Assembly (NCBI RefSeq): GCF_036507355.1
Contig: NZ_AP027877.1
Origin: Escherichia coli
GTDB taxonomy: Bacteria; Pseudomonadota; Gammaproteobacteria; Enterobacterales; Enterobacteriaceae
Length of the DNA stretch: 64,000 nt
Direction: 5' to 3' (one strand)
Positions 2,063-63,102 of this stretch are shown piece after piece; within the stretch, counting starts at the first letter, position 1, and each line of letters starts with the position of its first letter. The notes under the pieces were generated by a model. It was given only the letters and a program-made list of their open reading frames with translations. It was not told the origin of the DNA and ran no database searches. The translations under genes were made by a program, and so were the position numbers.

Positions 2063-3613
2063 TTATACCGTAAACCCTAACATCATCCCCGTATCTTCAT
2101 GCTCCAGCAGATGGCAGTGCGCCATATAAGCATGTTCTTTCGGTGCGTCGTGATTAAACTTCACCAGCACTTCACTGACATTGCCTTCTACCTTAACGGT
2201 ATCTTTCCAGCCCGCGCGATGAGCCGCTGGCGGTTTGCCATTTTCTGACAAGATACGGAACTGCGTGCCGTGAATATGGAACGGATGCAGCATCATGTCG
2301 CCCACGCCAGAGATAACCCAACGTTCATACTGCCCTTTCGCCGCCGCAAACATCGGCTTATTCATATCAAACGCCTGACCGTTGATTTTATTGGCATGGT
2401 GGAAATCGAACTTCCCGCCGTGGTTCATATGATTCATATTGCCGTGCCCCATATGGCCCATCATCTGGCTGTGATCCATCCCGGCCATCGCCTGATCGCC
2501 ATATTTCTCCATTAGCATCTGCATCCCCATCATATCGAGCATCGGGTCCATAGAAAGTTGCAGCTTGCGTACCGTCAGCCCTTCCAGCGAAGGTAACGCA
2601 GGCAGGCTACTTAATGTGTCTGGCAAAGCACCGGAGGCACTAATAGCAATCGGCTGAATCCGCATTACCGGATGCGGCTTGTCAAACGGTGCAATCGCCA
2701 TCCCCATCTGGCTGACCGGCAGCGTCACCAGGTCAAAGGGTTTGTTGTCGTTAACCTCCACCAGCACTTCAAAACGCTCGCCCATCAGCACCGGCAGCTC
2801 GTTCACCTTCACCGGTTCAGGTAGCAGACCACCGTCGCTGGCAATCACATAAAGCGGGCGATTGTCGCTGGTGGCGAAATTGAGCGAGCGGGCATTACAG
2901 CCATTGAGCAAACGCAGGCGCAGCCAACCACGCGGGGCAGCGTGTTGCGGGTAGATTGCACCGTTGGTCAGCAACGTATCGCCAAACCAGCCCACGGCGG
3001 CGGTCATCACATCCAGTTGATAATCAATCTGCCCGTCGGCGCTAAATTTCTTATCCTGAACGATCACCGGAACATCATCGATACCCCACTGTTTTGGCAG
3101 CATTAATTTCAGGATCTCGTCATCTTCAATCACCACCAGACCAGCCAGCCCCATCGCCACCTGTCGCCCGGTCTTGCCATGTTGATGTGGATGGAACCAG
3201 CAGGTAGCGGCAGGTTGATCAACGTTCAACGTCACCGAGCGCTTGCCACCTGGCGGAATAATTCCCTGTGGGCCGCCGTCGACTTCACCCGGTACTTCCA
3301 GCCCGTGCCAGTGCAACGTCGTCTCTTCCGTCAGTTGGTTATAGATATCAACCGTTACCGCTTTGCCGCGCTGTAATTTCACCGCCGGCCCCAGCAGATT
3401 GCCGTTATAGCCCCAGGTAGTTGCAGTTTTCTCGCCAAAGGTAGACTGACCTGCGCCAATAGTTAACTGAATGCGATTACGGGCATCGGTCGTGAGCAAA
3501 TCAGGGATCGGTAACGTTGGGCGTTCCGCCGCAAAGACTGCACGGCTCCACAGTGGCAAGGCTGAAGCCACACCCAGTGCGACGGAATATTTCAAGAAAT
3601 CACGACGTTGCAT
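2063..3613 (-). CDS. cueO: Multicopper oxidase CueO (516 aa) with twin-arginine signal peptide
   Basis: ORF track 2063..3652; true start taken at the ATG giving [10 protein letters not shown]... (RR Tat motif); length and sequence match CueO from memory. Confidence 0.96.
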
Positions 3614-3666
3614 AGTTATTTCCTTATTCTTAAGCAGGCGAAACAAAATCAAACGTTGAGCATAGT

Positions 3667-3685
3667 CCTTCCCCTTACGGGAAGG
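3667..3685. promoter_or_regulatory. Candidate CueR (MerR-type) operator in the cueO promoter
   Basis: Inverted repeat CCTTCCCCTTACGGGAAGG 54 bp upstream of the cueO start; CueR operators are of the CCTTCC...GGAAGG type (established knowledge). Confidence 0.6.
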
Positions 3686-3778
3686 TCAAGCCGCAGACAC
3701 AATTTAATCGACAATAATGGTCGTCGCCTCGCTCGCAGTGTGCTAACGTTTATCTTCTTTAAGCCCCTGGTAGAAGCA

Positions 3779-4126
3779 ATGAAGACGTTTTTCAGAACAG
3801 TGTTATTCGGCAGCCTGATGGCCGTTTGCGCAAACAGTTACGCGCTCAGCGAGTCTGAAGCCGAAGATATGGCCGATTTAACGGCAGTTTTTGTCTTTCT
3901 GAAGAACGATTGTGGTTACCAGAACTTACCTAACGGGCAAATTCGTCGCGCACTGGTCTTTTTCGCCCAGCAAAACCAGTGGGATCTCAGTAACTACGAC
4001 ACCTTCGACATGAAAGCCCTCGGTGAAGACAGCTACCGCGATCTCAGCGGCATTGGCATTCCCGTCGCTAAAAAATGCAAAGCCCTGGCCCGCGATTCCT
4101 TAAGCCTGCTTGCCTACGTCAAATAA
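3779..4126 (+). CDS. yacC: Periplasmic protein YacC (115 aa)
   Basis: Internal ATG of ORF 3608..4126 giving MKTFFRTVLFGSLMAVCANSYA... (signal peptide); matches YacC from memory. Confidence 0.88.
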   Translation: MKTFFRTVLFGSLMAVCANSYALSESEAEDMADLTAVFVFLKNDCGYQNLPNGQIRRALVFFAQQNQWDLSNYDTFDMKALGEDSYRDLSGIGIPVAKKCKALARDSLSLLAYVK

Positions 4127-9434: not shown

Positions 9435-10435
9435 ATGAAAATGACTTTGCCGTTTAAACCCCATGTGCTGGCGCTAATTTGCAGTGCCGGGCTTTGTGCC
9501 GCCTCTACCGGGCTATATATAAAAAGCCGCACAGTGGAAGCGCCTGTGGAACCGCAATCGACACAACTGGCTGTGTCTGACGCTGCCGCGGTTACGCTTC
9601 CTGCAACGGTTTCCGCACCTCCCGTAACACCCGCCGTCGTCAAATCCGCATTCAGCACTGCACAAATAGATCAATGGGTCGCGCCCGTCGCGCTGTATCC
9701 CGACGCCCTACTTTCGCAGGTGCTGATGGCATCAACCTATCCGACAAACGTTGCTCAAGCAGTGCAATGGTCGCACGATAATCCACTTAAACAAGGCGAT
9801 GCTGCTATTCAGGCGGTATCTGACCAGCCGTGGGACGCCAGCGTTAAATCACTGGTGGCCTTTCCACAATTGATGGCATTGATGGGCGAAAACCCGCAAT
9901 GAGTGCAAAACCTGGGCGATGCTTTTCTGGCGCAGCCGCAGGACGTGATGGACTCGGTACAGCGATTGCGGCAACTGGCGCAACAAACCGGCTCGCTGAA
10001 GTCATCAACCGAACAGAAAGTTATTACCACAACGAAGAAAGCTGTACCGGTAAAACAGACAGTCACGGCACCCGTCATACCATCCAATACCGTTTCAACT
10101 GCCAACCCTGTCATTACAGAGCCTGCAACAACCGTCATTTCCATTGAGCCCGCCAATCCTGATGTAGTCTATATTCCCAACTACAACCCAACCGTGGTTT
10201 ACGGGAACTGGGCCAATACTGCGTATCCGCCGGTTTATCTGCCACCACCAGCCGGAGAACCGTTTGTTGACAGCTTTGTGCGCGGATTCGGCTATAGCAT
10301 GGGCGTTGCTACCACGTACGCACTATTCAGCAGCATCGACTGGGATGACGACGATCATGACCATTATCATCATGACGATGATAATTATCATCACCACGAT
10401 GGCGGTCATCGTGACGGTAATGGCTGGCAACACAA
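9435..10435 (+). pseudogene. yacH: yacH (DUF3300 family) 5' portion, carrying an in-frame TGA at 9900-9902 and ending where the IS element is inserted
   Basis: ORFs 9435..9902 and 9903..10454 are in the same frame, separated only by TGA; the frame then runs into the IS left inverted repeat at 10436. Confidence 0.85.
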
Positions 10436-10470
10436 TGAATCGCCACGGGTTTAACAGACACCTCAGAGTC
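10436..10470 (+). repeat. IS left terminal inverted repeat (IRL)
   Basis: TGAATCGCCACGGGTTTAACAGACACCTCAGAGTC; pairs with the reverse complement of 11630-11664. Confidence 0.85.
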
Positions 10471-10498
10471 ATTTAAGATGGCTTAAAGAGAGGTGCCC

Positions 10499-10777
10499 AT
10501 GAGCGGTAAGCGTTATCCCGAAGAGTTTAAAATTGAAGCAGTCAAACAGGTTGTTGATCGCGGTTATTCTGTTGCCAGCGTTGCAACACGTCTCGATATC
10601 ACCACCCACAGCCTTTACGCCTGGATAAAGAAGTACGGTCCGGATTCTTCCGCTAATAAAGAACAGTCAGATGCTCAGGCCGAGATCCGCCGTCTCCAGA
10701 AAGAGCTGAAGCGGGTTACCGACGAACGGGACATATTAAAAAAAGCCGCGGCGTACTTCGCAAAGCTGTCCGACTGA
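10499..10777 (+). CDS. IS3-family transposase OrfA (helix-turn-helix / leucine-zipper part)
   Basis: ATG at 10499 with RBS AGAGAGG; MSGKRYPEEFKIEAVKQVVDRGYSVASVATRL...ERDILKKAAAYFAKLSD, typical IS3-family OrfA. Confidence 0.88.
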   Translation: MSGKRYPEEFKIEAVKQVVDRGYSVASVATRLDITTHSLYAWIKKYGPDSSANKEQSDAQAEIRRLQKELKRVTDERDILKKAAAYFAKLSD

Positions 10778-35235: not shown

Positions 35236-36387
35236 TTAATCAGCTTGCTTACGCAGGAATGCTGGGATATCCAGATAATCCGGCTCTTTCGCAGTTTGCG
35301 GCGCATTGTCATTCACGACTTTAGCAACCGGCTTCTGCTCCTGGGTCAGCGGAGCCATCCCGTGCTGCTGGTAGCGATCCATCACTGGCTGCTGAACCTG
35401 CTTATTGGTCACCAGAGTGATTTCAGGACGTTTGTCCATGCCGATACCTGTCGCAACAACAGTTACGCGCAGCTCGTCATTCATATCCGGGTCAAGAGAA
35501 GTACCGATAACCACGGTCGCGTTGTCGGAAGCAAATGCACGGATGGTGTTACCTACCGTTTCGAACTCATCCAGACGCAGGTCGAAGCCCGCTGTGATGT
35601 TAACCAGCACGCCGCGTGCGCCAGACAGGTCGATATCTTCCAGCAGCGGAGAAGAGATAGCCATTTCAGCAGCTTCTTCCGCACGGTCTTCACCGCTTGC
35701 CACGCCAGAACCCATCATTGCGTAGCCCATTTCAGACATTACGGTGCGTACGTCTGCAAAGTCCACGTTCATCAAACCCGGACGAGTAATCAGTTCGGCG
35801 ATACCTTGCACAGCGCCTTTCAGTACATCGTTCGCTGCGCCAAACGCATCCAGCAGGGAGATACCACGGCCCAGAACTTTCAGCAGTTTGTCGTTCGGGA
35901 TAGTGATCAGAGAGTCCACATGCTTGGACAGTTCAGTGATCCCCTGCTCCGCGAATGCCATACGCTTCTTGCCTTCAAAGTTGAAAGGCTTAGTGACGAC
36001 GGCAACGGTCAGGATACCCAAATCTTTTGCCACTTCAGCGACGACTGGTGCTGCACCTGTACCGGTACCACCACCCATACCCGCAGCAATAAAGACCATG
36101 TCTGCACCTTCCAGCGCCGCACGCAGTGCATCGCGATCCTCATCAGCCGCATTGCGGCCAACTTCTGGATTAGCGCCAGCGCCCAGTCCTTTGGTGATAC
36201 CGCTACCGATTTGAATCGTCTGTCCAACCGCTGTTTTACGCAGCGCTTGTGCATCGGTATTTACCGCGAAGAATTCAACACCTTCAATGCGCTCACGCAC
36301 CATGTGTTCAACAGCATTACCGCCGCCGCCGCCGACGCCGATGACTTTAATCACCGCGTCATTGGTAAGTTCCATTGGTTCAAACAT
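35236..36387 (-). CDS. ftsZ: Cell division GTPase FtsZ (383 aa)
   Basis: [52 protein letters not shown]... (tubulin signature GGGTGTG). Confidence 0.98.
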
Positions 36388-36447
36388 AGTTTCTCTCCGA
36401 TTTGTGCCTGTCGCCTGAGGCCGTAATCATCGTCGGCCTCATAAAAA

Positions 36448-37710
36448 TTAAAACTCTTTTCGCAGCCAACTATTGAGTCGCTTGATCCACGAGCCAACTG
36501 ATGCTGTAACACGTTTTTCTACTTCAGCTTCACCGTTAAGATGTGACTCTTTCCCATAGTGAAGCAATCCCACCGCCGTCGAATAATACGGCTCCTGAGC
36601 ATAATCCGTTAAACCGGTAATGTTCAGCGGCGCGCCGATACGCACTTGCGTATGAAACACGCGCTGAGCACAGGCTGCAAGACCTTCGATCTGCGCTGCG
36701 CCACCGGTTAATACAATGCCTGCCGCCAGGTGATGTTTAACCCCTTGTTGGCGAAGCTTTTCCTGCAACTGCAATATCTCTTCGTTGACCAGGTTGAGCA
36801 GCTCGGTATAGCGCGGCTCGATCACCTCTGCCAGGGTCTGACGTTGCAGACTCCGCGGCGGACGACCACCTACGCTCGGCACTTCCACGCTCTCATCTTT
36901 TCCAACGATGGAACCCAGCGCACAACCGTGGCGAACTTTAATCGCTTCGGCGTCGCTTGGCGGCGTGCCAAAGGCGTAAGCGATATCACTGGTCACGACA
37001 TTGCCAGCATAAGGAATTACCTTAGTGTGGCGCAATGCCCCACCGGTATAAACGGCGATATCCATTGTACCACCACCGATATCGACGACGCAGACACCCA
37101 GTTCACGTTCATCTTCCGTCAATACCGAATAACTTGATGCCAGTCCGGCAAATATCAGTTGGTCAACTTTCAGCCCACAACGTTCAACCGCTTTGACGAT
37201 GTTTTTCGCCATATCGTTGTGACATGTGATCAGGTGCACTTTTGCCTGCATCCGCACGCCCGAAAGTCCTACCGGATTCTTGATCCCTTCCTGATAGTCA
37301 ATCGCATACTCTTGCGGGATCACATGCAGCACACGATGCTCATCGCGCACACGCACCGATTTCGCGGTATGGACGACGTTTTCCACATCTTCTTGCGTCA
37401 CTTCTTCTTCAGAAATCGGCACCATACCAATTTCATTCTGGCAGCTGATGTGCTTACCAGAAAGCGCCAGATATACCGAAGAGATCTGACAATCTGCCAT
37501 CAATTCTGCCTGGTCAATGGCGCGTTGTACGCACTTGACCACGGATTCGAGGTCGTTCACCCCGCCTTTATCCATACCACGCGACGGGCAGCTGCCCACG
37601 CCAATGATATTGACCATACCGTCGGGCAGAACTTCCCCTACTAAAGCGGCAACCTTCGCGGTACCAATCTCCAGTCCTACTACCAGTTTTCTGTCCGTCG
37701 CCTTGATCAT
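36448..37710 (-). CDS. ftsA: Cell division protein FtsA (420 aa)
   Basis: [57 protein letters not shown]... Confidence 0.97.
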
Positions 37711-60825: not shown

Positions 60826-62842
<2,017 letters not shown>

Positions 62843-62875
62843 TTTGTACACCGTCCGGTACTCAATCGCCAAAAA

Positions 62876-63102
62876 GAAAAAAGCCAGCAGATAATCACTG
62901 CTGGCGTGGCGATTAACACCAATACTCAGTCACACATGATGTCCGCAAATCAGTAGTCAGAATGACTCCCCTCCCACTGCATCAGTTCTTCAAGCATGGT
63001 TAATCGTTGTGGGACGCTTAACCAACGCAACCAGCACAACTGCGCTGTCGCGGTAAAATAGTGCTGATAAAACTGACGCATGGGGCACCTCCTTGCTTCA
63101 TC
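62876..63102 (-). ncRNA. sgrS: Small RNA SgrS (glucose-phosphate stress sRNA; dual-function, encodes SgrT); ends approximate
   Basis: Minus strand starts GATGAAGCAAGGAGGTGCCCCATGCGTCAG..., contains the ptsG-pairing seed GAGTATTGGTGT and ends in a terminator hairpin CCAGCAGTGATTATCTGCTGG plus U-tract; sits 67 bp from the divergent sgrR start, as in K-12. Confidence 0.88.
62950..63081 (-). CDS. sgrT: Small protein SgrT (43 aa) encoded within SgrS
   Basis: C-terminal part of ORF 62950..63249: MRQFYQHYFTATAQLCWLRWLSVPQRLTMLEELMQWEGSHSDY, with an AGGAGG RBS upstream. Confidence 0.85.
   Translation of the reverse strand: MRQFYQHYFTATAQLCWLRWLSVPQRLTMLEELMQWEGSHSDY

Follow-up and report, generated by a model that had tools for sequence, protein, structure and literature searches.

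A predicted CueR-dependent cueO promoter, unchanged from K-12, between cueO and yacC in an Escherichia coli chromosome

CueR-activated promoters and the cueO-yacC intergenic region

In Escherichia coli K-12, CueR activates copA and cueO (PMC5329002, PMC8169799), and PcueO-lacZ serves as a CueR reporter (PMC9396075). Copper activation of cueO by CueR is thus established in K-12; for it, these papers cite Outten 2000, Stoyanov 2001 and Yamamoto & Ishihama 2005, and descriptions of this regulation go back to 2000. CueR has the core box CCTTCC-N7-GGAAGG, as PMC8169799 quotes it from Yamamoto & Ishihama 2005. In a 2006 comparative study, the CueR signal is written ACCTTCCC-(5)-TGGAAGGT, and a "yacC-yacK divergon" is described that has a CueR site and a promoter with a 19-nt spacer (PMC1526738). 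Other metal-responsive promoters of the MerR family (merT, zntA and the targets of HmrR, CadR and PbrR) likewise carry a dyad in an over-long spacer of 19-20 bp and are likewise activated through distortion of the DNA (PMC1526738, PMC8169799); in contrast to these shared features, the half-site sequence at cueO is specific to CueR/HmrR. The register of the dyad matters for the contact between CueR and sigma and for CueR-dependent activation (PMC8169799).

We analyzed a 64-kb window (the whole stretch of DNA presented above) and found that it is E. coli chromosome, collinear in reverse orientation with approximately 76.5-140.7 kb of K-12 MG1655 at 97-99% identity. Positions 3614-3778 are exactly the 165-bp intergenic region between cueO on the minus strand and yacC on the plus strand; the genes diverge from start codons at 3613-3611 (ATG, minus strand) and 3779-3781 (ATG, plus strand). 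When we compared this region with the cueO (yacK) promoter of K-12 MG1655, we found that all 165 bp are identical base for base (100%) and that the flanking genes and their orientation are the same. A 601-bp query over the site finds a match, annotated as cueO and yacC, in 5424 of 5426 complete E. coli genomes. A 71-bp segment centered on the operator has the same sequence in 5025 of these 5424 genomes, and its identity in the remaining 399 is 95% or more. The CueR operator of cueO is already known and is unchanged here from K-12; there is nothing new in the regulatory region.

Operator dyad and promoter anatomy at cueO

In the sequence at 3667-3685, CCTTCCCCTTACGGGAAGG, two 7-nt arms, CCTTCCC (3667-3673) and GGGAAGG (3679-3685), form a perfect inverted repeat with 5 bases between them; the whole takes up 19 of the 165 bp between the genes. 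Read without regard to strand as CCTTCCC-CTTAC-GGGAAGG, the dyad matches the core box CCTTCC-N7-GGAAGG with 0 mismatches, and this is the single match in the window. The exact box appeared in 0 of 100 dinucleotide-preserving shuffles of the window, and 0.08 matches with at most one mismatch are expected in a window of this kind. A palindrome this short and GC-rich, with arms of 7 bp, could in principle have arisen by chance, or could form a hairpin or a terminator-like structure in RNA, and have no regulatory role. However, the absence of the exact box from all of the shuffles argues against chance; the terminator scan was blank and the stem is not followed by a downstream T-run, which speaks against a terminator. 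In addition, Rfam at gathering thresholds gave no hit between cueO and yacC.

To describe the promoter around the dyad, we used a custom scan for sigma-70-like promoters with spacers of 15-21 bp over positions 3560-3830. The only promoter found in this region is TTGACC-N19-TATGCT on the minus strand, which encloses the dyad and reads towards cueO. Its -35 hexamer, TTGACC, is at 3684-3689 and is also that of copA; its final two bases are the opening two of the dyad. The 19-bp spacer, TTCCCGTAAGGGGAAGGAC, is at 3665-3683 (minus strand) and is 2 bp over the sigma-70 optimum, and the -10 hexamer, TATGCT, is at 3659-3664 (minus strand). A standard promoter scan of positions 3500-3900, which allows spacers of 16-18 bp only, found no promoter, as would be expected of a MerR-type promoter with a suboptimal 19-bp spacer. 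From the position of the hexamers, we infer that cueO transcription would start near 3652, giving a leader of approximately 40 nt that includes a Shine-Dalgarno region, AAGGAAA, at 3619-3625 (minus strand), a block that is conserved in an alignment of 77 upstream sequences. The dyad lies upstream of this inferred start and would hence be outside the cueO mRNA, which further argues against an RNA element.

We also performed a generic test, which counts every palindrome whose arms are 6 bp or longer if it falls within a weak promoter match with 19-bp spacing. This test gave 3 hits in the window as compared to a mean of 0.56 expected, with at least one hit in 47 of 100 simulations, and is therefore not specific. 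The other two hits, at 10384 and 10596 on the minus strand, fall in the His/Asp-rich yacH coding sequence and in an IS element, and we judge both to be chance. These two evident chance matches in the same window could be taken in favor of a chance origin for the cueO palindrome as well. Because the architecture alone is unspecific, we draw support instead from the specific CueR box, the identity with K-12 and the conservation of the site (below).

A close relative of this promoter is that of copA, which in the K-12 genome record reads TTGACC-TTCCCCTTGCTGGAAGGTT-TAACCT and also has a 19-bp spacer. Aligned on the -35 hexamer, PcopA and PcueO are identical at 22 of 31 positions. They have in common TTGACC, the 19-bp spacer, the half-sites CCTTCC/GGAAGG and the register of the dyad: in both promoters, the CC of the -35 hexamer opens the dyad, and the gap from GGAAGG to the -10 hexamer is 2 bp. 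They differ in the central 7 bp (CGTAAGG in cueO, CCTTGCT in copA), in the -10 hexamer (TATGCT in cueO, TAACCT in copA) and in the product that is regulated, which is a periplasmic oxidase for cueO and a P-type ATPase for copA.

The earlier note had described a palindrome of the MerR-family operator style between divergent cueO and yacC, and had proposed that it be compared with the copA operator and inspected for -35 and -10 hexamers with 19-bp spacing. All of this held up: the palindrome is the perfect inverted repeat at 3667-3685, it contains the exact CueR box, hexamers with 19-bp spacing flank it on the cueO strand, and hexamer, spacer length and dyad register agree between copA and cueO.

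All metal-sensing MerR regulators use dyads in 19-20 bp spacers, and a CueR paralogue that also has a CueR-type site occurs in Salmonella (PMC1526738); on these grounds, the operator might be assigned to another regulator of the family, such as ZntR, SoxR or a GolS-like gold sensor. However, the half-sites agree exactly with the CueR box and with copA, and the gene downstream encodes a copper oxidase. We therefore consider assignment to another MerR-family regulator extremely unlikely. The ZntR and SoxR operators have half-sites unrelated to those of CueR, and the zntA promoter has a 20-bp spacer and a dyad unlike that of CueR. E. coli is not known to have GolS. The palindrome is almost certainly the operator of the CueR-dependent cueO promoter (PcueO), and no observation contradicts this reading.

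Conservation of the promoter block and predicted copper control

To examine how widely the site is retained, we collected cueO loci from 80 enterobacterial species, each represented by a single genome, with the CueO protein alone as query. Because retrieval used only the protein, the species sample is not biased towards loci that bear the operator. We found the block CTTGACCTTCC...GGxxGG..TA(T/A)GCT upstream of cueO, at a near-fixed distance, in 79 of the 80 species, which include members of Escherichia, Citrobacter, Salmonella, Enterobacter, Klebsiella, Raoultella, Kosakonia and Kluyvera. In all 79 species that bear the block, the spacer is 19 bp; the -35 hexamer is TTGACC, or TTGACG in two Superficieibacter species, and the -10 hexamer of the orthologues is mostly TATGCT or TAAGCT. 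The right half-site outside Escherichia is often GGAGGG and not GGAAGG, and the E. coli site is for this reason among the most symmetrical. The sole exception among the 80 species is Intestinirhabdus alba (locus L075, 1240-1512), where a cueO homologue has neither the CueR box nor the promoter nor a divergent yacC, and where the DNA upstream of cueO is GC-rich and unrelated.

When 77 distinct upstream sequences were aligned with MAFFT, the promoter block from 3690 to 3659 stood out as an island of conservation, and in the same alignment the flanks at approximately 3716-3692 and 3655-3628 are poorly conserved. An island of this kind, with the hexamers and the 19-bp spacing retained in 79 of 80 species, is not what is expected of a chance palindrome. 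Together with the exact-box statistics and the missing T-run, this pattern of conservation rules out a chance palindrome, hairpin or terminator, to which we give next to no probability.

For the CueR-dependent promoter that we favor, the published mechanism would work as follows. A dimer of CueR, a MerR-family Cu(I) sensor, would bind CCTTCC-N7-GGAAGG in the spacer, which is 2 bp too long and would leave the two hexamers out of phase for sigma-70 RNA polymerase. Apo-CueR would keep the promoter DNA in a repressed conformation, and Cu(I)-CueR would bend and under-twist the spacer until the sigma-70 holoenzyme can reach both hexamers, turning cueO on (PMC8169799, PMC5329002). CueR carrying Ag(I) or Au(I) would act like Cu(I)-CueR. 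The CueO that is made would then be exported via the Tat pathway and would oxidize Cu(I) in the periplasm. In this account, CueR binding, copper induction and DNA distortion come from the literature, and the anatomy of the sequence, the identity with K-12, the register shared with copA and the conservation come from our analysis. The crystal and cryo-EM structures of CueR were made with copA promoter DNA; by analogy, the structural mechanism probably extends to cueO, since the -35 hexamer, the spacer length, the half-sites and the register are identical.

The gene under this promoter, cueO (2063-3613, minus strand), encodes a multicopper oxidase of 516 aa that belongs to copper homeostasis by its match to the NCBIfam equivalog NF008205. 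The match scores 983.5 bits over residues 1-516 (cut-off 525), and the protein is accordingly full length. On the same protein, Pfam finds three Cu-oxidase domains and TAT_signal, the latter on residues 1-20 with 21.1 bits (E = 2.9e-4), slightly below its 22.7-bit cut-off. The Tat signal peptide spans residues 1-28 (3530-3613, minus strand): the N-terminus, MQRRDFLK, carries the twin-arginine motif and is followed by a hydrophobic stretch and an A-x-A cleavage site. Residues 1-60 are the same as in K-12 CueO, and the two full proteins differ at 2 residues, G61E and S271N.

Two statements of the earlier note bear on this gene. It had called the Tat signal RRDFLK of CueO intact, and we find the motif at residues 3-8. 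It had also taken the palindrome to support copper-responsive control of cueO in this strain; the promoter anatomy and the identity with K-12 speak for such control, and the words "in this strain" rest on cueR being a core gene of E. coli. In K-12, cueR is near 514 kb, approximately 375 kb away, and it lies outside the window; of 5426 complete E. coli genomes, 5424 carry cueR, and we assume from this core status that the strain has it. On that assumption, the standard circuit of aerobic copper tolerance in E. coli, with a CueR-controlled cueO promoter and a Tat-targeted CueO, would be intact in the strain. The finding has little significance beyond annotation.

The yacC side and the surrounding chromosome

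On the other side of the intergenic region, yacC (3779-4126, plus strand) encodes a YacC family pilotin-like lipoprotein of 115 aa (NCBIfam equivalog NF037975, 196.8 bits). In 78 of the 80 species, yacC sits upstream of cueO in divergent orientation, with 140-200 bp between the genes. Per-column conservation over the 77 distinct sequences reveals a second conserved block at 3713-3750 on the plus strand, separate from the CueR site, that is a candidate yacC promoter. The block is composed of AATAA (3713-3717), TCGTCG (3721-3726) and TGCTAACGTT (3741-3750); the last of these is at least 90% conserved in the 77 enterobacterial sequences, and AATAA and TCGTCG are conserved too. With a weak -35 hexamer at a spacing of 17 bp, TGCTAACGTT resembles an extended -10 element (TGnTAACGT), and the block may be an extended -10 promoter of yacC. 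Its match to the consensus is weak, and both promoter scans (16-18 bp and 15-21 bp spacers) missed it.

If the CueR site were bidirectional, the same dyad would also make yacC copper-responsive. The YacC pilotin-like lipoprotein would then be linked to copper stress, and this link would account in part for the retention of the yacC-cueO divergon in 78 of 80 enterobacterial species. This retention, together with the short intergenic region and the assignment of the site to the "yacC-yacK divergon" in PMC1526738, is consistent with control in both directions. In contrast, the hexamers around the dyad point to cueO only, and yacC has its own conserved block approximately 60 bp away; relative to the yacC start inferred from this block, near 3756, the dyad would be at around -78. 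None of the papers searched connects yacC with copper. We regard copper control of yacC from this dyad as improbable, and the reading of the site as a promoter/operator for cueO alone is the one we retain.

Elsewhere in the window, we noted several other features. An IS3-family element of 1229 bp (10436-11664) interrupts yacH relative to K-12. Its orfA (10493-10777) and orfB (10834-11646) both match NCBIfam transpos_IS3. The element ends in imperfect inverted repeats of 38 nt that start TGAATCGCCACGG, and it is flanked by a 3-bp target duplication, CAA, at 10433-10435 and 11665-11667. The sugar exporter gene setA (K-12 77621-78799) is absent between leuD and sgrS, where 40 bp (62837-62876) stand in place of approximately 1.26 kb of K-12 sequence; SgrS itself is intact (Rfam, 226.6 bits). 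Within the aceF-lpd intergenic region, 30 bp (14045-14074) stand in place of approximately 147 bp of K-12 (127736-127882), which makes the region approximately 120 bp shorter, and this difference is probably the gain or loss of a REP-type repeat. Finally, Rfam matches PssrA (RF02797, "plasmid-encoded Shigella sRNA A") at 36379-36468 on the minus strand with 105.5 bits. The matched segment maps to the junction between the end of ftsA and the start of ftsZ in K-12 (approximately 105225-105314), which suggests that the PssrA family corresponds to chromosomal ftsA-ftsZ sequence.
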